Source of the DNA: a virus
Reading direction: 5' to 3' (one strand)
UHGV virus genome: UHGV-0140727
DNA: 30,803 nucleotides
Shown: in pieces, positions 11,205 to 20,455 of the stretch
How positions within the stretch are numbered: position 1 is the stretch's first letter
Layout of the letters: every line of letters starts with the position of its first letter
Made by a program: the position numbers and the translations under genes
The notes under the pieces: model-generated
Databases searched by the model: none
Told to the model about the DNA's origin: nothing
The model's input: the letters and a program-made list of their open reading frames with translations, nothing else

Positions 11205-12821
11205 TCAACGTCTAAGCCCCTCATATGGGTTTCCTCTCACTAAGTCTGTGTGAGCACCCATTGATGGTGGCTTGAATAATTTAACTTCGTTAAGACTGTT
11301 GAAAGCATCACTGGTAGCATCCACTTGGTCATCTTTAGTTTTGCCATCACCACAAAAGCCTTCAAGCTCTTGAAAGTAAGCTTCGTTCCAACTACCTCTC
11401 AAGACTTTTACAAGTCCAGCTTCAGAAGCAGCAGAAAATCCCGCAAAGCGGGTAACTTTATCTTTATTTGTTGGTTTAGCTCTTGCACGATAGCCTTTCT
11501 CGGCAAGTTTCCTGATGAGGGATGTTGCGTAGGATTTACCAGCAGCGCCTGGGTCTTGAGGGATAAAAATACCAGTTCGCTTACCGTCACTTTCAGCAGT
11601 CAAATTAATTTGTGTTTCGACTCCAGAGGGTCTATCTCTAAATCTTACTACATCAATGATATAATAGCAACCGTCTTTTTTAGATTTACCCATCTTAACA
11701 CCTGCTGTCCAGTCTGGGTTAGGGTTAATCTCAGATGGTAAAGTTGCTGCTAAGTCCCATGCTCTAACATCAAATACATCTTCTGGGAGTGAATCAACAA
11801 TCTCACACCATTGTCTTTGCCAGTAGTTTGAACCTTCTGCACGAGCCTTCCAGTTACCGAAACGAAGTCTTGCAACGTTTACAGGAGTGTTGTTTTCCAA
11901 CTTACCACGGTACTTAGGCTCTAAGAAGTCAAGGATTGGGTTATCATCAATCGTACCAGAGATGAAGGTGTATGTTTGAGGAATCTCAAGAGGGAACATT
12001 TCAAGAATCTTGTCTCTCTCCCAATCAGACACCATCACACCATCATTCATTACATACCAACGAATACGACCACACTTTTCAGGGTCTGGGTAACCTTCTT
12101 CATCTAAGAATGGCTCTACCCAATCATAAATAAAATGGTCTCTGTCTGGGTTCATGGAAATCTTCATGTATGAATCACCTTCAGCACCAGAACGTAGACG
12201 GGTTTGTAGGTATGAAATCTGTGAAGCAGAGAAGTGTGTACCTTCGTCAAAGTAAATAGCTGAGTATTCAATACCCTGATGACCTTCAGCGTGCTTTTCA
12301 AGTTCTAGGTAGGTAAACTTGATAGTTGCCCCAGAAGGGAATGTGATAGTCATTTTCTGCTCGTGAGGAATCCCACCAAACTTACCAAATAGTTTCTTTG
12401 CAGCAGGCCATAAACCACCTTGTAACTGTGTTGTATTTCGACGGAAATATACAGCATTATAGTTAGGGTCTTCAATAAATCTTAAAGAGTCCATTAACAA
12501 TGCGGCAGTTTTACCAGCACCAGCAGCACCACCATAAAGAACCAAGTCAGCATTAGTGTTTAAAAAGACCTCTTGAGAACCCGGCTGAGGGGCTACATAG
12601 TTCTTATCAGTCATCAATTTAAAGATGAGGCGAACTTGGTCTGGTGTGTATCTTAATAAAGTCAGAATTTGAGTTGGAAGGAATTTAGAGGGGTCTTTAC
12701 CGAATGATTTGATAATTTCTTTTACTTCATCAGAAAGCCCCAACTCTCCAGCTAGGACTTTCCTAACATCTTCCACTCGCTTCTGCTTAACAGCATTTAA
12801 GTCCATTAAGCACCTCCGCAA
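11205..12821 (-). CDS. Terminase large subunit
   Basis: 538-aa ORF with a Walker A P-loop (LYGGAAGAGKTAAL) in the N-terminal ATPase region and an acidic C-terminal nuclease-like region, followed by the portal gene. Confidence 0.8.
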   Translation of the reverse strand: MRRCLMDLNAVKQKRVEDVRKVLAGELGLSDEVKEIIKSFGKDPSKFLPTQILTLLRYTPDQVRLIFKLMTDKNYVAPQPGSQEVFLNTNADLVLYGGAAGAGKTAALLMDSLRFIEDPNYNAVYFRRNTTQLQGGLWPAAKKLFGKFGGIPHEQKMTITFPSGATIKFTYLELEKHAEGHQGIEYSAIYFDEGTHFSASQISYLQTRLRSGAEGDSYMKISMNPDRDHFIYDWVEPFLDEEGYPDPEKCGRIRWYVMNDGVMVSDWERDKILEMFPLEIPQTYTFISGTIDDNPILDFLEPKYRGKLENNTPVNVARLRFGNWKARAEGSNYWQRQWCEIVDSLPEDVFDVRAWDLAATLPSEINPNPDWTAGVKMGKSKKDGCYYIIDVVRFRDRPSGVETQINLTAESDGKRTGIFIPQDPGAAGKSYATSLIRKLAEKGYRARAKPTNKDKVTRFAGFSAASEAGLVKVLRGSWNEAYFQELEGFCGDGKTKDDQVDATSDAFNSLNEVKLFKPPSMGAHTDLVRGNPYEGLRR

Positions 12822-13250: not shown

Positions 13251-13326
13251 TGGAGAATCCGAAGGGACTCGAACCCTTATAAACCTGTTTTGCAGACAGG
13301 CACATAGCCATTTCTGTCACGGATTC
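13251..13326 (-). tRNA. tRNA-Cys (anticodon GCA)
   Basis: Hand fold on the minus strand: perfect 7-bp acceptor (gaatccg/cggattc), T-arm AAGGG-ACTCGAA-CCCTT on the plus strand, anticodon stem CCTGT/ACAGG with loop CUGCAAA, CCA encoded. Confidence 0.75.
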
Positions 13327-13330
13327 AAAT

Positions 13331-13423
13331 TGGAGGAAGATACCAGACTTGAACTGGTACACCGATTTCTCAGCTACTGGCAGTTTAGCAAACTGCTCCC
13401 TTACCTTTTAGGGTTAATCTTCC
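13331..13423 (-). tRNA. tRNA-Ser (anticodon GCU), type II
   Basis: 93 nt. Perfect acceptor (GGAAGAT/ATCTTCC), T-arm ACCAG-TTCAAGT-CTGGT, anticodon stem GCAGT/ACTGC with loop UUGCUAA, long variable arm, CCA encoded. Confidence 0.7.
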
Positions 13424-13424
13424 A

Positions 13425-14159
13425 TTATTTCTGTAATGCGTTCTTCATTTCTGGTGTTGCAATAGTGTCAATTACACCAGTTTTACAAGCATCATCAAAC
13501 CAGTCTGGTAAGATACCTGCTAAGAACCCATTGATATTCGTTTTAAGGTACTCTGCAATAAGGGCAGCTTCTTCTTCAATCATCTGCACAACTTCATCTG
13601 CATAAGCTGTAATCTTTGAGATACCTTCATTAATCTTACTGACAGCTTGGTTAGCTAAATCAGAAACAGTATCAAGACCCTTATCAATAGCATCTTGTAA
13701 GTCACTTAACACACCATTAACACTATCTAGTGTACTGTTAATCATGTCAATAGCTTTTTGACCATACTCTGTAGCAACACCCATAATACCACTGAATGGT
13801 GTACAACCAACTTGTTCTCCTGCTGCACCCATAACATTGGAGTATCCCTTTGCTACCTGCATACGTGATGAAAACTCATCAATAGACTTTTGACCGTAGT
13901 CTGTTAAGGTCTTAGTGGTTGCTGTAGTGCTTGTCAGGCTTGTTGTAAAGCTGTTTAGAAGGACTGTTGTAAGCCCAGCAGCAACAAGTTTCTCCTTCAT
14001 TGTAGGGTCTGTTACAGAGCTAATAGAGCTTACAAGTGATGTAGAGGCAGATACGGTTCCACCGAGAACTGCTGCACCAGTAATAAGTGGGTTAGAAAAC
14101 CCTTTACCGGTTTTTAAGAGATTAAAAATCTCCTTACCTTGTTCTGTCATCTCTTTCAT
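13425..14159 (-). CDS. Hypothetical Ser/Thr-rich protein embedded between tRNA genes
   Basis: ORF track gives 13425-14222, but the first 21 codons overlap a tRNA. The internal ATG at 14157-14159 has an AAAGGTG ribosome-binding site upstream. The protein has a low-complexity Ser/Thr-rich segment and a helical C-terminal half. Confidence 0.45.
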   Translation of the reverse strand: MKEMTEQGKEIFNLLKTGKGFSNPLITGAAVLGGTVSASTSLVSSISSVTDPTMKEKLVAAGLTTVLLNSFTTSLTSTTATTKTLTDYGQKSIDEFSSRMQVAKGYSNVMGAAGEQVGCTPFSGIMGVATEYGQKAIDMINSTLDSVNGVLSDLQDAIDKGLDTVSDLANQAVSKINEGISKITAYADEVVQMIEEEAALIAEYLKTNINGFLAGILPDWFDDACKTGVIDTIATPEMKNALQK

Positions 14160-14176
14160 TAAGCACCTTTGAAATT

Positions 14177-14244
14177 GGTAGCCCAGTGGGATTTGAACCC
14201 TCTTCTCATGTTTTTCAGACACGCGCTTTAACCATATAAGCTAC
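14177..14244 (-). tRNA. tRNA-like, probable tRNA-Phe (anticodon GAA), atypical D region
   Basis: T-arm (GAGGG-TTCAAAT-CCCAC), anticodon stem-loop CGTGT-CUGAAAA-ACATG and a 7-bp acceptor with two G-U pairs are present. No convincing D-stem could be folded and CCA is not clearly encoded. Ends approximate. Confidence 0.4.
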
Positions 14245-14257
14245 TTGGACTATAAAT

Positions 14258-14333
14258 TGGGGTGACCTACGGGATTTGAACCCGTATAGACCATGTTCAC
14301 AGCATGGGTCATTACCATTTATGATAAGGCCAC
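14258..14333 (-). tRNA. tRNA-His (anticodon GUG)
   Basis: T-arm ACGGG-TTCAAAT-CCCGT (sense), anticodon stem CCATG/CATGG with loop CUGUGAA, 7-bp acceptor with one G-U pair, discriminator C, CCA encoded. Confidence 0.7.
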
Positions 14334-14364
14334 ATTTAAGGACTCTCGTAAGAATCCTTAGAAG

Positions 14365-14440
14365 TGGCAGCGGCATAAGGATTTGAACCTTAATAAGACA
14401 GCTTCAGAGACTGCTGCATTGCCAGTTATGCTATACCGCT
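14365..14440 (-). tRNA. tRNA-Gln (anticodon CUG)
   Basis: T-arm TAAGG-TTCAAAT-CCTTA, D-stem GCAT/ATGC, anticodon loop CUCUGAA on a stem with two terminal G-U pairs, 7-bp acceptor, CCA encoded. Confidence 0.55.
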
Positions 14441-14445
14441 AAATT

Positions 14446-14516
14446 TGGTACTCCATATCGGATTCGAACCGATACATAACACAGATTTTAAGTCTGGCCT
14501 CTCTGCCAATTGGAGT
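14446..14516 (-). tRNA. Compact tRNA-like gene, anticodon UAA (Leu-type anticodon, no long variable arm)
   Basis: 71 nt. Clean T-arm ATCGG-TTCGAAT-CCGAT, 6-bp acceptor plus mismatch, CCA encoded. The only anticodon-like loop is CUUAAAA on a 4-bp stem; the D-stem is 3-4 bp and shares nucleotides with the anticodon stem. Atypical. Confidence 0.4.
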
Positions 14517-14526
14517 AATGGAGCAT

Positions 14527-14602
14527 TGGCGGGGGATGTTGGAATTGAACCAACTTCTTCGATTTCAAAGACCGAGGTTTTAACCTTGTAAACTAATCCC
14601 CT
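14527..14602 (-). tRNA. tRNA-Gln (anticodon UUG)
   Basis: T-arm GTTGG-TTCAATT-CCAAC, D-stem GTTT/AAAC, anticodon stem TCGGT/ATCGA with loop CUUUGAA, 6-bp acceptor plus a terminal mismatch, CCA encoded. Confidence 0.65.
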
Positions 14603-14610
14603 TTAAATCT

Positions 14611-15168
14611 TTACTTTCTCAGTGGATGAATAAAGAATGCCAACATAACTCTTTCCCTTGAGAATGCTCTTTCTTCTGGGACAACACTTTTTAGTTTCCA
14701 TCCAATATAAATTCTCCAGTAAAACTGTTTACCAAAGACTTTAATTGATGGTATAAAAGCGAATAATCCCCAAGCATTACTGTTCCACATTAGGAGATAA
14801 CCAGTCTGATTATCTTCAGGGTCAGAACTTACGTTGATATTACCTTTCCACTTAGTCACATCTTTTACATCTCTTCCTAATACATGGTAAGAGAAGTTAT
14901 AAGCTTTGTTTCTCCAGAGCCATCCAACTCTCTGCATGTAGACACCCAGCTTACCAATCTTTCTAATCTTAGCCCATCTTTTAACGTGGCCTTCATCACC
15001 ATCAATTGGGTTGTCATATGTCTCCATCCATCTGAACCCGAAAGGTAAGTGTCCTTTCTTCTCACTGTAGAATGGAACTACGAAAGGTGCTAAGATAACT
15101 GCTAGTATTGCTGCAAGTGGTTCTAGCAAAGCTAAGAAAATCCATGAAGCATATTTTAAGTATCTCAT
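14611..15168 (-). CDS. Hypothetical membrane protein (N-terminal transmembrane segment) inside the tRNA array
   Basis: 185-aa ORF with a hydrophobic N-terminus (WIFLALLEPLAAILAVILAPFVVPF). Its start overlaps the stop of the upstream 80-aa ORF in ATGA fashion (15165-15168). Confidence 0.5.
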   Translation of the reverse strand: MRYLKYASWIFLALLEPLAAILAVILAPFVVPFYSEKKGHLPFGFRWMETYDNPIDGDEGHVKRWAKIRKIGKLGVYMQRVGWLWRNKAYNFSYHVLGRDVKDVTKWKGNINVSSDPEDNQTGYLLMWNSNAWGLFAFIPSIKVFGKQFYWRIYIGWKLKSVVPEERAFSRERVMLAFFIHPLRK

Positions 15169-15407
15169 TGTCTAACCCTCGTAAGGAGGTAAGCATTATT
15201 ACTTGTTTCTGAGCTTTCTGGTAACATTGTCTCAAAATTGACACTTTTAAGTTGTCTTCCACCAAAGCAATGACCAATAAATCTTTCTACTTTTATTGGG
15301 TCGCATTCCCATCCGACTTTTAAGAAAATGTGGGTATCTATAGTGGGAACCCTTACAAACTCAATACTATTGGGATTTTCATGTTCAACGACGATTAATG
15401 TTTGCAT
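15165..15407 (-). CDS. Hypothetical protein, first gene of a two-gene operon inside the tRNA array
   Basis: 80-aa ORF with an AGAGGA ribosome-binding site 5 nt upstream of the ATG at 15405-15407, translationally coupled to the downstream membrane protein. Confidence 0.45.
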   Translation of the reverse strand: MQTLIVVEHENPNSIEFVRVPTIDTHIFLKVGWECDPIKVERFIGHCFGGRQLKSVNFETMLPESSETSNNAYLLTRVRQ

Positions 15408-15425
15408 AAATTCCTCTTGCTTATC

Positions 15426-15501
15426 TGGCGCAGGATAAGGGATTCGAACCCATACTAACAGTTTCGTAGACTGTTGCTCTATCCATTTGAACTAATCCTG
15501 C
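15426..15501 (-). tRNA. tRNA-Arg (anticodon ACG)
   Basis: Perfect 7-bp acceptor (GCAGGAT/ATCCTGC), T-loop TTCGAAT, perfect anticodon stem ACAGT/ACTGT with loop CUACGAA, CCA encoded. Confidence 0.75.
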
Positions 15502-15615
15502 TTACCTACGAGAACACCATACAGTTTTTCACAAACTTTGTTTTTACGTCTGTTTAGATATGACGCTCTAAACTTTTTTGCGATGGACTTATCACTCATA
15601 GTGCTCTCCTAAAAT

Positions 15616-15693
15616 TGGTGTTCCAAGACGGATTCGAACCGTCACTAATACAAGGTTTGAGCTTGCATCCTCTGCCAATTGGGATACTGGAAC
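15616..15693 (-). tRNA. tRNA with anticodon CAA (Leu-type anticodon, short variable region)
   Basis: T-arm GACGG-TTCGAAT-CCGTC, 7-bp acceptor, discriminator A, CCA encoded, anticodon stem GCAAG/CTTGT with loop CUCAAAC. Variable region is only about 6 nt, so it is not a canonical type II Leu tRNA. Confidence 0.5.
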
Positions 15694-15694
15694 A

Positions 15695-15769
15695 TGGTAC
15701 TCACTAAAGGACTTGAACCTTTTTCTTCATCTTGTAAGGGTGATGTTTTACCATATAAACTAAGCGAGT
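15695..15769 (-). tRNA. tRNA-Val (anticodon UAC)
   Basis: T-arm AAAGG-TTCAAGT-CCTTT, D-stem GTTT/AAAC, anticodon loop CUUACAA on a stem with one mismatch, 7-bp acceptor with one G-U pair, CCA encoded. Confidence 0.65.
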
Positions 15770-15864
15770 GTGAAAGAGGTCTGAAGTTGTGCCGCTAACT
15801 CAACTCCGTGGAATTTGTTACGGTCTTCAGTTGACACCAGCGGTCTTTCACTTGACCCCTGAAT

Positions 15865-15940
15865 TGGTGCTCCCACAAGGATTCGAACCCTGATAAGTTG
15901 CTTACAAGGCAACCGTAATAGCCAATTATACGATAGGAGC
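15865..15940 (-). tRNA. tRNA-Thr (anticodon UGU)
   Basis: Perfect anticodon stem GTTGC/GCAAC with loop CUUGUAA, T-loop TTCGAAT, 7-bp acceptor with one G-U pair, CCA encoded. Confidence 0.75.
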
Positions 15941-15946
15941 ATTATT

Positions 15947-16021
15947 TGGAGCATCCAGAGGGAATCGAACCCTCAACCTCAGTTTGGAAGACTGTAATTT
16001 TCCCGTTTAAACTATGGATGC
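15947..16021 (-). tRNA. tRNA-Gly (anticodon UCC)
   Basis: Perfect acceptor (GCATCCA/TGGATGC), T-arm GAGGG-TTCGATT-CCCTC, anticodon loop CUUCCAA, CCA encoded. Confidence 0.7.
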
Positions 16022-16027
16022 ACTAAT

Positions 16028-16103
16028 TGGTGGAGTCACTGAGAATTGAACTCAGTTCCCAAGTTTGCAAAACTCGAATTTTAACCATATAAACTATGAC
16101 CCC
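16028..16103 (-). tRNA. tRNA-Ala (anticodon UGC)
   Basis: T-arm CTGAG-TTCAATT-CTCAG, anticodon stem CGAGT/ACTTG with loop UUUGCAA, acceptor with one G-U pair, CCA encoded. Confidence 0.65.
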
Positions 16104-16109
16104 ATTTTT

Positions 16110-16185
16110 TGGTACAGGTGGAGGGAATTGAACCCATCGTCTTACTGATTAAGAGTCAGCCGCATAACCATTTTGCTACACCTGC
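16110..16185 (-). tRNA. tRNA-Lys (anticodon CUU)
   Basis: T-loop TTCAATT, anticodon stem GCTGA/TCAGT with loop CUCUUAA, 7-bp acceptor, CCA encoded. Confidence 0.6.
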
Positions 16186-16192
16186 ATTAATT

Positions 16193-16270
16193 TGGTAGGA
16201 GACAAGGGATTCGAACCCTCAAACATCTCGTTCTAAGCGAGATAGGTTTACCAATTACCATCAATCTCCC
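16193..16270 (-). tRNA. tRNA with anticodon UAG (Leu-type anticodon, short variable region)
   Basis: Perfect anticodon stem TCTCG/CGAGA with loop CUUAGAA, T-loop TTCGAAT, D-loop with a TTGG signature, discriminator A, CCA encoded. The 5-nt variable region makes it a type I architecture despite the Leu anticodon. Confidence 0.55.
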
Positions 16271-16352
16271 ATTAAATCTTTTTAGAGAACTTCTAAGAAC
16301 CTAAGCAACAAGGTTCCACAACAAGCTGTAATAACCTTAGAAGCCCTCTAAA

Positions 16353-16371
16353 AAGACCTAAAAAGGTCTTT
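16353..16371 (-). terminator. Weak hairpin, terminator-like, inside a 250-nt tRNA-free spacer
   Basis: Hairpin aagacc-taaaaa-ggtctt flanked by A/T runs on both sides (16350-16354, 16369-16371). Orientation ambiguous. Confidence 0.3.
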
Positions 16372-16527
16372 GCATAGTCTTGTTTAATCCGGTGACTAGA
16401 ACCTTTGGAGAGCTTGATATTATCTCTTCTCCGTGACACCTACTAGGTGCTTTATCAGTGCGTACAACAATACACGCGGTATACCAAAGCAACATCCGAA
16501 TGAAGCTTGGCTTTAAATCTTATTAGG

Positions 16528-16615
16528 CGGTAAGTAAAGGAGTCGAACCCTCACCGTATCTCTACAGTGGCAACAGTTTTCAAGACTGTTTGGCTGCCAT
16601 TAGCCGCTACCTACC
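16528..16615 (-). tRNA. tRNA-Ser (anticodon UGA), type II
   Basis: 88 nt. Perfect anticodon stem ACAGT/ACTGT with loop CUUGAAA, long variable arm, T-loop TTCGACT, 7-bp acceptor with one G-U pair. CCA is not encoded. Confidence 0.65.
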
Positions 16616-16628
16616 CCTAATAAGACTT

Positions 16629-16711
16629 TGGCATGGGACGGAGGAGTTGAACCCCTTTGAAACGGTTTTGGAGGCCGTTGCTCATGCCTTAGAGTCTTAA
16701 CATCGTCCCAT
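16629..16711 (-). tRNA. tRNA-like, probable tRNA-Trp (anticodon CCA) with extra nucleotides between acceptor and D-stem
   Basis: Perfect 7-bp acceptor (ATGGGAC/GTCCCAT), CCA encoded, T-loop TTCAACT, anticodon loop CUCCAAA. About 10 nt lie between the acceptor and the D-stem where 2 are expected. Confidence 0.45.
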
Positions 16712-16848
16712 ACTATAATTCGAAGCTTACCCTGTTATCTCAACACTGTCAAGCTTCTTCTCAGATTATTTACATGTTCTGGAAAACATGAGATACAGAC
16801 CACCTCCCTACAGGAAGACCCGCTAAGGCCGTCTAAGTAATCTGCTAA

Positions 16849-17196
16849 CTAATACTTTGCATGTCTTACCCTATGGCAATTTGAACATAGCAAAACACAT
16901 TTGTCAAGTTCATCTTTTAGTTCTTGAGAGAACTTCAGACTTTTTCTATGACCAATGTTAAAATCTTTCTCTGAAGGATTCAAATGATGGAAGTCATACA
17001 CTGCTGGATGATACCTTTTACCACAATCATGACAAACCCCACCTTTGTACTCAATAGCTGAAAGTTTAAGTGCTCTTTGTCTTTCTATGGTTTGCTCATT
17101 AACACACTTTTTACAGTATGAATGAGTTCTCTTACCATCTTTCATGTAGAAATCATTTTCATCCTTGCTAAGTTTGCACCTAATACAAGTTTTCAT
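16849..17196 (-). CDS. HNH endonuclease (homing-endonuclease-like) embedded in the tRNA array
   Basis: N-terminal CxxC...CxxC zinc-finger-like cysteines, then the HNH signature (DFHHLNPSEKDFN ... CSNCHRVRH). ORF track start at 17247 overlaps a tRNA; the ATG at 17194-17196 has a GGAG ribosome-binding site 5 nt upstream, giving 115 aa. Confidence 0.75.
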   Translation of the reverse strand: MKTCIRCKLSKDENDFYMKDGKRTHSYCKKCVNEQTIERQRALKLSAIEYKGGVCHDCGKRYHPAVYDFHHLNPSEKDFNIGHRKSLKFSQELKDELDKCVLLCSNCHRVRHAKY

Positions 17197-17210
17197 GATT
17201 TCTCCAAAAT

Positions 17211-17292
17211 TGGTCGAGGCGGCAGGACTCGAACCCGCATACTCCACTTACTCGGTTAACGGCGGTTTAGAAGACCGCTGAGATACGCCCCG
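17211..17292 (-). tRNA. tRNA-like gene, anticodon unresolved (candidate loop CUUCUAA would give Arg UCU)
   Basis: Clean T-arm GCGGG-TTCGAGT-CCTGC, 7-bp acceptor with one G-U pair, CCA encoded. A perfect stem GCGGT/ACCGC carries loop CUUCUAA, but the remaining nucleotides do not give a canonical D-arm and variable arm. 82 nt. Confidence 0.4.
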
Positions 17293-17540
17293 TAATTATC
17301 TTTAAAGACTCTCTTAGAAAGCCCTTAGAGATGCCCACCTTATTAATCATACCGTGGGCTAGTACGCCAAATTCTTTGATGAGGGATTGGAAGACCTCAC
17401 TGGTGTTTAGCCTATCAAGCTACTGCCAGAAAAACATTGTCGTTTGCATTTATTTTAAATTTGCAAAATAGACGCTACGCAACGAAAACTAAGGTTACTA
17501 TAAAGTAGTCACATCTCAATGTCAACAACTTTATTGAAAT

Positions 17541-17615
17541 TGGTTGTAGGTGAGGGTATCGAACCCTCTTCTAACGGTTATCAGCCGTTTGCATTACCAT
17601 TTATGCTAACCCACA
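17541..17615 (-). tRNA. tRNA-Ile (anticodon GAU)
   Basis: Perfect D-stem GCAT/ATGC, perfect anticodon stem AACGG/CCGTT with loop CUGAUAA, T-arm GAGGG-TTCGATA-CCCTC, CCA encoded. Confidence 0.75.
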
Positions 17616-17617
17616 AT

Positions 17618-17694
17618 TGGAGGTTCAGATGGGAATCGAACCCACATTCATAGGGCTTATGAGACCCTTGCATTACCTTATCTGCGACTGAACC
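17618..17694 (-). tRNA. tRNA-Met (anticodon CAU; elongator or Ile2-type not distinguishable)
   Basis: Perfect acceptor (GGTTCAG/CTGAACC), anticodon stem AGGGT/GCCCT with loop CUCAUAA, T-loop TTCGATT, CCA encoded. G1-C72 pair argues against an initiator. Confidence 0.65.
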
Positions 17695-17698
17695 ATTT

Positions 17699-17774
17699 TG
17701 GTAGAAGTGGAGGGATTCGAACCCATCGCCTGTCAGATTAAAAGTCTGCCGCATCACCATTCTGCTACACTTCC
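17699..17774 (-). tRNA. tRNA-Lys (anticodon UUU)
   Basis: T-loop TTCGAAT, anticodon loop CUUUUAA, 7-bp acceptor, CCA encoded. Confidence 0.65.
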
Positions 17775-17916
17775 ATTAAATTATATTTGTAGATAAGCTA
17801 CCCAGACTTGCTTAAGGTCTGTAGCGATGTGTCTTTTCGGGTTAAATCTAGAATCTACCCTTCCACCTTTGTGGTCGCATACTCACAGGTAAGCTTAATA
17901 ACTTATCTACAAAGAT

Positions 17917-18057
17917 AATTACCAGACCGTTGTTTATCATCTTAAGTGCTACCATTACACCAACTCGACATCTGCCGAGTGAAGGAATCGAACCTTCGCC
18001 TTTTCTTTACCGGAGAAATAGATTGTTTAAGTTTTGCTGTAAACGGTCTTCTGTAAA
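17917..18057 (-). ncRNA. Structured RNA element A: conserved bulged closing helix enclosing a permuted tRNA-like module (Y-RNA-like candidate)
   Basis: Sense strand: 5' TTAC-AGA-AGACCGTT (plus 18040-18055) pairs with 3' AACGGTCT-G-GTAA (plus 17920-17932). Between them, in order: T-arm GAAGG-TTCGATT-CCTTC (plus 17971-17987), a 7-bp acceptor-like hairpin closed by a 4-nt loop (plus 17953-17970), and a D-arm-like GTGTAATGGTAGCAC (plus 17936-17952). No anticodon arm. Confidence 0.45.
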
Positions 18058-18063
18058 TTTGTT

Positions 18064-18145
18064 GAGCCAGACCAAGTTTTAAATTTTTCAAAATTAAATT
18101 GGCTTGAAAATATCATACGTACTTGCTGTATTTGGTCTTCTGCTC
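18064..18145 (-). ncRNA. Structured RNA element B (paralog of A, C, D)
   Basis: Same helix architecture with compensatory changes: outer GAGC/GCTC, 5' AGA opposite 3' G, inner AGACCAA/TTGGTCT, conserved TACAGCAA at the start of the enclosed loop. Confidence 0.4.
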
Positions 18146-18203
18146 CTTTAAAGGATACTCGTAAGAACCCTTTAAGGGAGGGGCTAAATAGCCCTCTCAA
18201 AAT

Positions 18204-18281
18204 TGGCGGTTACGAAGGGATTTGAACCCTCATCATCTCCCGTGACAGGGGAGTATTTTAACCAAATTAAACTACATAACC
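18204..18281 (-). tRNA. tRNA-Asp (anticodon GUC)
   Basis: Perfect anticodon stem CTCCC/GGGAG with loop CUGUCAC, T-loop TTCAAAT, acceptor with one G-U pair, CCA encoded. Confidence 0.75.
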
Positions 18282-18286
18282 TTTAT

Positions 18287-18374
18287 TGGTGTGCCGTGTA
18301 GGAGTCGAACCTACCGAGTCTCAATGACAAGGGATTTACAGTCCCCACCGCTACCATCTACGGGATAACGACAC
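18287..18374 (-). tRNA. tRNA-Tyr (anticodon GUA), type II
   Basis: 88 nt. Anticodon stem GGGGA/TCCCT with loop CUGUAAA, long variable arm, perfect T-stem GTAGG/CCTAC, 7-bp acceptor with one G-U pair, CCA encoded. Confidence 0.7.
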
Positions 18375-18383
18375 ATTTAAATT

Positions 18384-18460
18384 TGGCGGTTAGTCAGGGA
18401 TTCGAACCCTGTGCCATTCGCTTAACAGGCGACCGCACATACCTTATGTGCTTCCTAACC
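18384..18460 (-). tRNA. tRNA-Asn (anticodon GUU)
   Basis: Perfect D-stem GCAC/GTGC, anticodon loop CUGUUAA, perfect T-arm CAGGG-TTCGAAT-CCCTG, CCA encoded. Confidence 0.7.
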
Positions 18461-18470
18461 ATGTTTAGTA

Positions 18471-18543
18471 TTACCAGACCGTATCTTTCAATTTTTTCCG
18501 CTAAAAATTTAATAAATATTGCTGTAAACGGTCTTCTGTAAAT
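18471..18543 (-). ncRNA. Structured RNA element C (paralog of A, B, D)
   Basis: 5' strand is identical to element A over 24 nt (TTTACAGAAGACCGTTTACAGCAA). It pairs with 3' ACGGTCT-G-GTAA (plus 18471-18482): outer TTAC/GTAA, inner AGACCGT/ACGGTCT, enclosing about 40 nt. Confidence 0.4.
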
Positions 18544-18544
18544 T

Positions 18545-18621
18545 TGGAGGCGGGTGCAGGAGTCGAACCTGCCGATACCATGCTAATGAGACATGTGAGA
18601 CGCCCTTTCTCTATACCCGCA
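18545..18621 (-). tRNA. tRNA with anticodon CAU (Met, initiator or Ile2-type not resolved)
   Basis: Perfect T-arm GCAGG-TTCGACT-CCTGC, D-stem GAGA/TCTC, anticodon loop CUCAUUA (U at position 37 is unusual), 6-bp acceptor with a 1-72 mismatch, CCA encoded. Confidence 0.55.
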
Positions 18622-18629
18622 ATTCTTAA

Positions 18630-18709
18630 TGACCAGACCAAATCTCTTCTATGTCCGATTTACCTTCAGATGAATAAGATTAAGTTTGCTGTAATTGGTC
18701 TTCTGTCAA
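18630..18709 (-). ncRNA. Structured RNA element D (paralog of A, B, C)
   Basis: Outer helix TGAC/GTCA, 5' AGA opposite 3' G, inner AGACCAA/TTGGTCT, conserved TACAGCAA at loop start, enclosing about 50 nt. Confidence 0.4.
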
Positions 18710-18712
18710 AAC

Positions 18713-18790
18713 TGGCGTTCCAGAAGGGATTTGAACCCTCAAATATCCACTTTGAAAGAGTGGTGACTTTACCATTTTGTCTACTGGAAC
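18713..18790 (-). tRNA. tRNA-Glu (anticodon UUC)
   Basis: Perfect acceptor (GTTCCAG/CTGGAAC), perfect anticodon stem CCACT/AGTGG with loop CUUUCAA, T-loop TTCAAAT, CCA encoded. Confidence 0.75.
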
Positions 18791-18797
18791 ATTAATT

Positions 18798-18874
18798 TGG
18801 TCTCTGTTGGAGGACTTGAACCTCCGGCCTTACCGCCCCAAACGGAACGCTCTACCAAGCTGAGCTAAACAGAG
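18798..18874 (-). tRNA. tRNA-Pro (anticodon UGG)
   Basis: Perfect acceptor (CTCTGTT/AACAGAG), perfect D-stem GCTC/GAGC, perfect T-arm GGAGG-TTCAAGT-CCTCC, anticodon loop UUUGGGG with G37, CCA encoded. Confidence 0.7.
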
Positions 18875-19039: not shown

Positions 19040-20455
19040 TTACCAGATATAACGGTCAATCATTACTGCTTTGAGCATTACGCTGATTGGGTCAAACTTC
19101 TCACCACCAAGCAGAGCTTTTAAAGTGGCTGGAGAGAAACCAGATACCATTGCTACACCGTTATCCTTAACAGATACTTCGCAAGTACCGTTACGGTTTG
19201 CTAAGTACCAGAATACCAGTTGTGGCATTTCGTATCCAGCTTTTTTGTACTTACTCTGGATTGCTTCAAAGTTTGTACGACCGTTAGCTCCATCAACCTG
19301 ATTGAACTCCATATCGGAGAAGATGATAAGCTTACTTGGCATATCTTTCTGAGTCAAGTTGTTTCTTTTACCTGTCTCAAGAATACGGTCAAAAGCTGCT
19401 TGTAAGTTAGTTGAGCCATATTCAACGTGTCGCATCACCTGACGATGACGGTTTCGTAAATCACCACTCAGTTCGATGAAGTGAGGGTTTGTTGAATAAA
19501 CCATTAACTCATTCTTAAAGCAACCTGTATTGCGTTCTGCTACATACAAGGCAAGTGATACACCAATATCCAGAGCAGTAATGGAGCCAAAATTCACCCA
19601 AGACATTGAACTTGATACATCAGACATACACAAGATGTTTTCACCTTCTGCCATCCAGTTTGGTAGTGCTTTCCACTGCTCATTAGCAACATCTGCATTA
19701 CCATACTTGACAGATTTAATCACATCGTATGGGTAAACAGCACCAGCGTTAATCTTAGTCTCACCTTTTGATAAGGACTCGATGTAAGCTTTGTAACGCT
19801 CTCCATCTTTACGGTTAAACAGTTTTTGGTAACGTGCAGCAGCAAGTGAAGGAATCTTACTGTAGTCAATCTTACCAAACTCATTAGCAGAGATTTTTTG
19901 CTCAACTGTATCAGATAGTGCAGACAACAGTGTGCGGTACTCTTTCTCACTCAAGTTGGCAAACTTGCAGAAACGTTTTACAAACTGCTTATGACGTGGT
20001 TTGACTCGTGGTAACCACTTAGCCGCCAAACCTGCTGTTGCAGGGTCTAGTAATGCTGCTTCTAAATGTTTGAAGGCATCTGTCTCGAAACGAGTACCTA
20101 CGAAGATTTTGAAGTCATCAAAACGACCAAGTTCTGCAATCTTATCCATAATGCGAAGAACCTGCGTAGACTCTAAAACTTTGTCTTCAATTGCTTGAAG
20201 CAAAACAGTTCTGAAGGCTTTACGCTCACCCATACCTTCTCGTACATCTCGCATATGAAGCAAAATACGAACTGCAACATCAACATCCTCACGCAAAGCT
20301 TTGTAGAACAGGTCTGGTAAGATTTCTACGTTGCTACGGCTTGAACCAGCAGCTTTGTAAAAGTCTACAAGAGCAGACATTGATGAAGTATGGTTTACAG
20401 CACCATTTTCAGTTCGACCTGCATGAAGGTACGCATGTTTAAATAATTCGCTCAT
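19040..20455 (-). CDS. vWA-domain protein with a helical N-terminal domain; Ro60/Rsr-like (TROVE + vWA) architecture, DUF2828-like
   Basis: 471-aa ORF. The C-terminal half has the vWA MIDAS signature in order: DxSxS (LCMSDVSSSMS), a downstream GSTN threonine, and LIIFSDME. The N-terminal ~250 aa is predicted helical. The TROVE assignment is inference from architecture and context, not from a search. Confidence 0.55.
   Translation of the reverse strand: MSELFKHAYLHAGRTENGAVNHTSSMSALVDFYKAAGSSRSNVEILPDLFYKALREDVDVAVRILLHMRDVREGMGERKAFRTVLLQAIEDKVLESTQVLRIMDKIAELGRFDDFKIFVGTRFETDAFKHLEAALLDPATAGLAAKWLPRVKPRHKQFVKRFCKFANLSEKEYRTLLSALSDTVEQKISANEFGKIDYSKIPSLAAARYQKLFNRKDGERYKAYIESLSKGETKINAGAVYPYDVIKSVKYGNADVANEQWKALPNWMAEGENILCMSDVSSSMSWVNFGSITALDIGVSLALYVAERNTGCFKNELMVYSTNPHFIELSGDLRNRHRQVMRHVEYGSTNLQAAFDRILETGKRNNLTQKDMPSKLIIFSDMEFNQVDGANGRTNFEAIQSKYKKAGYEMPQLVFWYLANRNGTCEVSVKDNGVAMVSGFSPATLKALLGGEKFDPISVMLKAVMIDRYIW

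Follow-up and report, generated by a model that had tools for sequence, protein, structure and literature searches.

What is a small HNH endonuclease gene doing inside the tRNA array of a FelixO1-like phage, and does it account for the odd tRNA-like elements around it? The question is raised by UHGV-0140727, a 30,803-nt stretch of viral DNA (hereafter the window, meaning the whole stretch that was analysed). A sequence-only reading of this DNA had taken a short reading frame among the tRNA genes for a free-standing HNH homing endonuclease gene, and had proposed that it could explain tRNA fragments and a permuted module nearby.

The same gene at the same site is FelixO1 ORF45 (NP_944866.1, 'HNH endonuclease'), with orthologs in Alf5, warpig, SP22, KEP2 and others at 96-100% nucleotide identity, and there is no biological difference between ORF45 and the window gene. 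ORF45 was counted among six HNH homing-endonuclease-like genes of FelixO1, and an intein context was excluded (Whichard et al. 2010, PMC3185647). We found no experimental work on ORF45 and no cleavage or homing evidence for its close homologs. The gene itself is already known and annotated, and is ordinary for a phage tRNA array.

Results

Genome context

The window derives from a FelixO1-like myovirus of Felixounavirus. A 2-kb query around the gene matches 307 phage records, nearly all of them Ounavirinae, the best being Escherichia phage warpig (97.4%). The tRNA array comprises 25 genes called by ARAGORN (13251-18874), all on the minus strand, and the HNH gene lies inside it in the same orientation. 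The array is bordered by the gene of the terminase large subunit (terL, 11205-12821, same strand as the HNH gene) and, on the other side, by that of a 471-aa DUF2828/DUF7788 protein (19040-20455, minus strand). The latter product belongs to PHROG 850 ('RNA-binding protein') and is named 'vWFA protein' in warpig; its proximity makes it a candidate that may be tied to the odd tRNA-like RNAs described below.

Other occupants of the array were also recorded. A DUF7338 protein (PHROG 2143, function unknown) is encoded at 14611-15168 (minus strand), and the same protein is found in the tRNA array of an unrelated 96-kb metagenomic phage contig (L012, 3656-4219), just downstream of an HNH homolog, a sign that a second family of proteins may reside in tRNA arrays. 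A 430-nt gap at 17775-18203 (minus strand) has no ORF of note and includes a partial tRNA match at 17980-18030 (minus strand; Rfam tRNA, 22 bits, model positions 7-64) that may be a tRNA remnant. Rfam matches in the array (permuted tmRNA at 17415-17598, and miRNA and plastid families) were dismissed as noise, being below threshold and overlapping tRNA genes.

The reading frame and its start codon

The HNH reading frame is real and intact, and its position is as first read: on the minus strand it occupies 16849..17196, from an ATG at 17196-17194 to a TAG stop at 16851-16849, and encodes a 115-aa protein, MKTCIRCK...CSNCHRVRHAKY. Its placement between tRNA genes also holds, within the 25-gene array and more exactly in the spacer between a tRNA-Arg-like and a tRNA-Trp-like gene. 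The ribosome-binding site had been put 12-20 nt from the 3′ end of an adjacent tRNA. A tRNA-like gene is indeed the upstream neighbour, but it is atypical and escapes ARAGORN, and the spacing is tighter: the Shine-Dalgarno sequence GGAG (17205-17202) starts 6 nt past the CCA end (A17211) and lies five nucleotides before the ATG, which itself starts 15 nt past the CCA end (14 nt between).

Mechanical extension of the frame reaches a GTG at 17247, giving 132 aa, and several GenBank records annotate this long form as a 130-132-aa product whose start lies inside the tRNA-like gene. The extension is situated within that gene and outside the insert defined below, and genomes without the HNH gene also possess the sequence. 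Homologs lack the N-terminal extension and start at MKxC; the Sf16 copy is annotated as 115 aa. Since the extension is both outside the insert and absent from homologs, the 115-aa form, rather than the 130-132-aa form, is the credible product.

The gene is under purifying selection, with dN/dS values of 0.05-0.30 (0.06 against Sf16, at a dS of 1.28). One locus was left out of the evidence, as a real rearrangement and an assembly chimera are indistinguishable there: in a 93.8-kb metagenomic Felixounavirus contig (IMGVR_UViG_3300045988_024527, 10080-10120) the HNH frame ends after codon 13, and the stub is joined to DNA without a match in the window, including ORFs of 174 and 308 aa.

A compact HNH protein with a predicted nuclease core

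A search of 5.8 billion proteins returned 256 homologs, mostly of 115-185 aa. The zinc-finger cysteines and the HH and CSNCHRVRH motifs singled out in the sequence-only reading are present and coincide with invariant columns of a 41-member family alignment (C4, C7, C28, C55, C58, F69, H70, H71, C100, C104, C107, H108, R109 and H112), while C31 and N106 are conserved in at least 90%. The sequence contains two zinc sites of the CxxC...CxxC type and a core of the pattern HH...N..H. A zinc ribbon (C4, C7, C28, C31) at the N terminus is followed by a long helix; the core comprises DFHH (68-71), C100, C104-S-N-C107-H108 and H112, and is bracketed by C55/C58.

PHROG 2255 ('HNH endonuclease') matches the protein with E = 1e-39, but PF01844, which aligns over profile positions 1-46 of 47 and so spans the whole motif, scores 16.7 bits against a gathering score of 21.4 (E = 0.0085). 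This profile does recognise 11 of the 41 family members with E values up to 0.01, the best being 3.2e-6. The low Pfam score is probably caused by 28 residues inserted between the beta strands of the beta-beta-alpha-metal core, as seen in the alignment and in the AlphaFold (AF2) model. This model (pLDDT 94) consists of the N-terminal zinc-ribbon hairpin, the long helix, a strand at 67-71 (YDFHH), the inserted helix, a strand at 100-104 and a helix at 105-114 bearing N106, H108 and H112. The His...Asn...His catalytic and metal-binding residues are conserved on a beta-hairpin and helix, and the two CxxC pairs around the core (C55, C58, C104 and C107, all invariant) align with those of McrA as a structural zinc site.

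A PDB sequence search gave no solved structure of a close relative; its sole match was the McrA HNH domain (6ghc, E = 0.002), aligned via both CxxC pairs and HH (CxxC...HH...CxxCH). Neither Foldseek with the predicted structure nor an NCBIfam profile search gave a significant or meaningful match. T4 endonuclease VII, a name used in some records, was rejected, as no similarity of sequence or fold was seen beyond the common beta-beta-alpha-Me motif. By motif and modelled fold we accept the protein as a member of the HNH superfamily that stays below the curated profile threshold, and nuclease activity is predicted.

A precise insertion in the tRNA spacer

Alignment of the window, warpig and FelixO1 (filled) with adrianh and VSe11 (empty) reveals one clean gap between near-identical flanks. 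Relative to relatives without the HNH gene, the insertion (16851..17208, minus strand) measures 356 nt, its ends being ambiguous by 2 nt (a shared TT), and filled and empty sites differ in length by 356-357 nt at all loci compared. The insert consists of an 11-nt leader and 345 nt of the ORF, and has no sequence of its own beyond these. The leader (17197..17207, minus strand), TTGGAGAAATC, carries the GGAG, is absent from empty sites, and is the same in Mooglevirus Sf16. At the other end, at least the AG of the TAG is flank sequence that empty sites also contain; the stop codon is borrowed from the flank.

The insert starts 1-3 nt past the CCA of the tRNA-Arg(UCU)-like gene. Empty sites read ...GACCAAT(T)TAGTTAGCAGATT..., a junction also written ...GACCAAT(T)TAGTTAGC..., and in adrianh and VSe11 the site is ...GTCCTGCCGCCTCGACCAATTTAGTTAGCAGATTAC...; filled sites read ...GACCAATT-TTGGAGAAATC-ATG...AAGTAT-TAGTTAGCAGATT.... 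The downstream flank, (T)AGTTAGCAGATTACTTAGACG (16830..16850, minus strand), is kept beside filled and empty sites in both Felixounavirus and Mooglevirus, and would be a candidate for one half of a recognition site split by the insert. The insert is outside any intron or intein and disrupts no host gene, and both tRNA-like neighbours are intact in the filled and empty states.

Among all variable columns within 450 nt on either side at 17 loci, no carrier-specific flank SNP was found, and hence neither a clear co-conversion tract nor an immunising substitution is apparent. The sole hint of co-conversion is an upstream indel of 26-29 nt common only to the haplotype of FelixO1 and the loci L013 and L022 (GGATG leader). 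Elsewhere in the spacer, an 89-90-nt indel lies just past a promoter-like site, ~100-190 nt upstream of the tRNA-Arg-like gene. It occurs in FelixO1, SP22, VSe11 and the loci L016, L019 and L022 and not in the window, warpig or adrianh, is independent of HNH status, and is a further sign of mosaicism in the spacer.

A patchy distribution among relatives

The full-length gene is present in 28 GenBank phage records, 26 of Felixounavirus (96-100% identity) and 2 of Mooglevirus (84%). In all, ~231 records contain the upstream flank (at least 90% identity), so that about one in nine (~11%) is a carrier, both counts being inflated by duplicate records. Among IMG/VR relatives, 3 of 12 carry the gene and 9 are empty.

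Presence of the gene does not track kinship. The relatives closest in the flanks and yet without it are LF82P1/P2 (98.2%) and VpaE1_ev035 and VSe11 (98.0%), whereas JN01 and D4 carry it despite a flank identity of 92%. The gene is 100% identical in SP22 and KEP2, and in SP22 it is joined to the downstream flank haplotype of the non-carrier adrianh. The distribution is incongruent with relatedness and points to horizontal spread. One pair, VpaE1_ev78 (carrier) and VpaE1_ev035 (non-carrier), was considered as laboratory-evolved siblings and hence a natural cross. The idea was dropped; a coliphage study from infant faeces reportedly suggests that they are independent field isolates.

The comparison extends to a second genus. 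Mooglevirus Sf16 carries the insert immediately downstream of a canonical tRNA-Arg(UCU), and its leader and 3′ junction are those of the window; in Sf18 the site is empty (GCCAAT followed by TAGTTAGCAGATTAC), behind a different canonical tRNA-Arg(UCU). That the Sf16-type tRNA-Arg allele might be carrier-specific was rejected, because KPS64 and KMM2 have the same allele and an empty site. As the identical empty junction is found behind three tRNA-Arg alleles in two genera, a series of perfect deletions would be a far less likely history than insertion. Clean filled and empty sites, together with the patchy distribution, bear out the proposal of a discrete insertion and give it the population signature expected of a free-standing homing endonuclease gene.

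The odd tRNA-like neighbours do not stem from the insertion

At 17211..17292 (minus strand), upstream of the HNH gene, an atypical tRNA-Arg(UCU)-like gene with its CCA encoded retains the acceptor, anticodon (loop CUUCUAA) and T arms. Of the D arm 4 nt are left, and the anticodon stem is followed by a near-invariant insert of 20 nt, CGUUAACCGAGUAAGUGGAGUA. The element scores 31.7 bits with the Rfam tRNA model (gathering score 29). The gene is conserved outside Felixounavirus, in PBECO4 (Asteriusvirus), K23PH08C2 (Mydovirus) and VivaForever (a 146-kb coliphage), with compensatory changes in the acceptor and anticodon stems across these lineages; in other Ounavirinae (Sf16, Sf18, Moogle) a canonical tRNA-Arg(UCU) occupies the same slot. 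Conservation in three other phage lineages with compensatory changes marks this element as a maintained RNA allele and not damage left by the HNH insertion.

The downstream neighbour (16630..16712, minus strand) resembles tRNA-Trp(CCA) but is atypical: its D region is enlarged, and its sole Rfam match is to tRNA-Sec (23 bits). In 23 relatives, among them wV8, VpaE1_ev78, TH10, the O157 typing phages 8/11/12/15 and SUSP1, it is replaced by a canonical 71-nt tRNA-Trp, followed at once by a paralogous 134-aa HNH ORF. The two always occur together (23/23 records).

Both odd neighbours are near-identical in relatives that lack the window gene, and there is no support for the idea that the gene accounts for the nearby tRNA fragments and permuted module. 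A weaker form of that idea survives: since HNH paralogs travel with alternative tRNA alleles, as with tRNA-Trp, HNH genes are plausibly involved in the allele turnover of the array.

Homologs recur beside tRNA 3′ ends

Placement just after a tRNA is a recurrent feature of the family, the start codons of FelixO1 paralogs and of homologs in unrelated phages falling 14-23 nt past a tRNA 3′ end. In the FelixO1 array, the start of ORF47 (35% identity) lies 14 nt beyond tRNA-Gly, and that of ORF44 (46% identity across the HNH half) 17 nt beyond tRNA-Met. Of three metagenomic homologs, the one with 66% identity begins 22 nt past tRNA-Arg(UCU), the one with 62% 14 nt past tRNA-Arg(ACG) and the one with 51% 17 nt past tRNA-Leu, and two of the three run into the next tRNA. 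The homolog of Pakpunavirus PAK_P2 is also within a tRNA array.

Homologs number at least 577 among IMG/VR loci and at least 458 among GenBank phage records. For a wider view, the best 80 IMG/VR loci, Felixounavirus itself excluded, were reduced to 73 distinct proteins. In this sample, with kinship ignored, a tRNA is found within 1.5 kb of 49 of the 73 homologs and within 100 nt of 38, and a tRNA-Arg(UCU) within 100 nt of 21. At multi-tRNA loci in this sample, tRNA-Arg(UCU) is the nearest tRNA in 11 of 29 cases against 5.7 expected (permutation, p = 0.008), tRNA-Arg(UCU) being a common phage tRNA anyway. The tRNA turns its 3′ end toward the nuclease gene in 20 of 25 Arg(UCU) neighbours, in either gene orientation, and the tRNA sequences are widely diverse.

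Discussion

Based on the above data, we consider it likely that the window gene is a homing endonuclease gene of the HNH (beta-beta-alpha-metal) type, minimal and free-standing, residing in an intergenic spacer of the Felixounavirus tRNA array. The exact indel, the scattered carriers, the purifying selection, the motifs and modelled fold and the recurrent placement after tRNAs are all consistent with this assignment, and we infer catalytic activity, a cut position and biased inheritance as follows. A promoter-like site, TTGACA-17-TATAGT (17497..17525, minus strand; 11 of 12 consensus matches), lies upstream of the tRNA-Arg-like and HNH genes in a stretch that is invariant among relatives; the assignment is a consensus match, of a kind no more frequent than in shuffled sequence. 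No terminator-like site was found between it and the HNH gene, and it probably drives co-transcription of the two genes. The HNH gene would thus be transcribed with the tRNAs from ~17525-17497, and tRNA processing would free an mRNA with a short leader. In a mixed infection, the small zinc-stabilised nuclease would nick or cut the HNH-less allele at or near the point where ...GACCAAT meets TTAGTTAGCAGATT..., and recombinational repair templated by the HNH-carrying genome would copy the cassette in. The carrier itself would be protected, the insert splitting the recognition site at the junction of tRNA 3′ end and spacer. The flanks do not distinguish carriers from non-carriers, and such splitting would be the simplest route to carrier immunity.

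A co-opted, beneficial nuclease is a less probable explanation, drawn from analogy with SegB and, in our view, unlikely. Such an enzyme would cut in or near tRNA genes and drive tRNA recombination, replacement and segmental amplification, and it could evade tRNA-targeting defences. This is compatible with mobility and differs on what maintains the gene. The SegB protein of T-even phages amplifies tRNA-Tyr and thereby defeats the tRNA-cleaving defence Septu, and its homologs are enriched near tRNAs with no isotype preference (PMC13096335, 2026). The HNH family is likewise enriched beside tRNAs, and the strong purifying selection and the strict linkage of an HNH paralog to the alternative tRNA-Trp allele would also fit a useful function. 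However, a gene carried by ~11% of close relatives does not resemble an important adaptive one, no tandem amplification of a tRNA segment surrounds it within the window, and the HNH protein shares neither sequence nor fold with SegB.

The gene could instead be an ancestral accessory gene with a housekeeping role that most relatives have deleted. Presence and absence alone give no direction between gain and precise loss, and the flanks are near-identical in both states. Loss would nevertheless require repeated, base-perfect deletions, each restoring ...CCAAT(T)TAGTTAGC, with the same junction in two genera and behind three tRNA-Arg alleles, and it would have to accommodate a cassette made up entirely of leader and ORF, carriers scattered over species and hosts with copies that are 96-100% identical, and paralogs that occupy other tRNA spacers in other relatives. 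We regard this history as improbable.

A packaging role, in which the protein would aid the terminase in genome end formation as HK97 gp74-type proteins do, seems very unlikely: small HNH proteins of the packaging class are typically about 100-120 aa and a terminase large subunit gene is present on the same strand, but that gene (terL) is 4 kb away with 16 tRNA genes and two ORFs in between, ~89% of close relatives package their DNA without the HNH gene, and the conserved neighbour of the family is a tRNA and not a terminase or portal gene. We would give just as little credence to an inactivated remnant, or to a protein that binds DNA or RNA and is devoid of nuclease activity, such as a regulator of tRNA-cluster expression, for which the sub-threshold Pfam score and the 28-residue insertion between the core strands might speak, since the catalytic and zinc positions are invariant or (C31, N106) at least 90% conserved across 41 homologs down to 43% identity, dN/dS is 0.05-0.3, and the core is confidently modelled as beta-beta-alpha-Me.

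Returning to the homing endonuclease reading, a broader version of it can be put forward tentatively for the family as a whole. The family might be directed at tRNA genes, with a preference for tRNA-Arg(UCU) 3′ ends in either orientation, and might move or replace tRNA alleles as nuclease-plus-tRNA cassettes between unrelated phages; we hold this to be possible rather than probable. The IMG/VR placements speak for it, as does the paralog that accompanies the canonical tRNA-Trp in 23 of 23 records. The attachment to tRNA-Arg(UCU) 3′ ends at the level of the family is the sole part of this work that may be new. If true, the HNH family would be a general driver of the gain and exchange of phage tRNAs, including the very common lone tRNA-Arg(UCU). 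For the window itself, the outcome is a routine annotation confirmed and a start codon corrected (115 aa, not 130-132 aa overlapping the tRNA-like gene). In addition, the precise filled and empty pair in easily grown coliphages (warpig or Alf5 versus adrianh) offers a simple test system for a very small HNH homing enzyme.

Several known systems resemble the window gene in setting or in fold. A link between repertoire diversity and the HNH genes of tRNA clusters has been drawn before (PMC6409571). [quoted passage not shown] The three T5 genes (hegA, hegC and hegD), like the window gene, are free-standing HNH genes wedged between and overlapping tRNA genes of a lytic coliphage, in tRNA orientation. 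Their products differ in size and domains, being about 190-227 aa long with IPR010902 (hegC, hegD) or IPR000792 and IPR002197 (hegA), whereas the window protein has 115 aa and an N-terminal zinc ribbon. Homology to hegA, hegC or hegD was rejected, the best tblastn match in T5 25-50 kb having E = 0.05 over 16 residues (95-110). At the level of the fold, the HNH domain of EcoKMcrA (6ghc), Hpy99I (3fc3), Gme HNH (4h9d) and GVE2 HNH (5h0o) have the same zinc-bracketed beta-beta-alpha-metal core, CxxC...H...N...CxxCH.

SegB is, like the T5 enzymes, a functional analogue. In T4/T6 it is likewise encoded within the tRNA cluster, where it abuts tRNA-Arg, and through its action the tRNA region is preferentially inherited in crosses (PMC2330249); it is a GIY-YIG enzyme, and the window gene encodes an HNH protein. 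SegB homologs have no isotype preference (PMC13096335), in contrast to the HNH family, in which tRNA-Arg(UCU) neighbours are in excess. If the attachment to tRNA 3′ ends holds, the family would stand beside the SegB-tRNA association, published in 2026, as its HNH counterpart, and would help to explain the mosaic and fast-changing tRNA repertoires of lytic phages.
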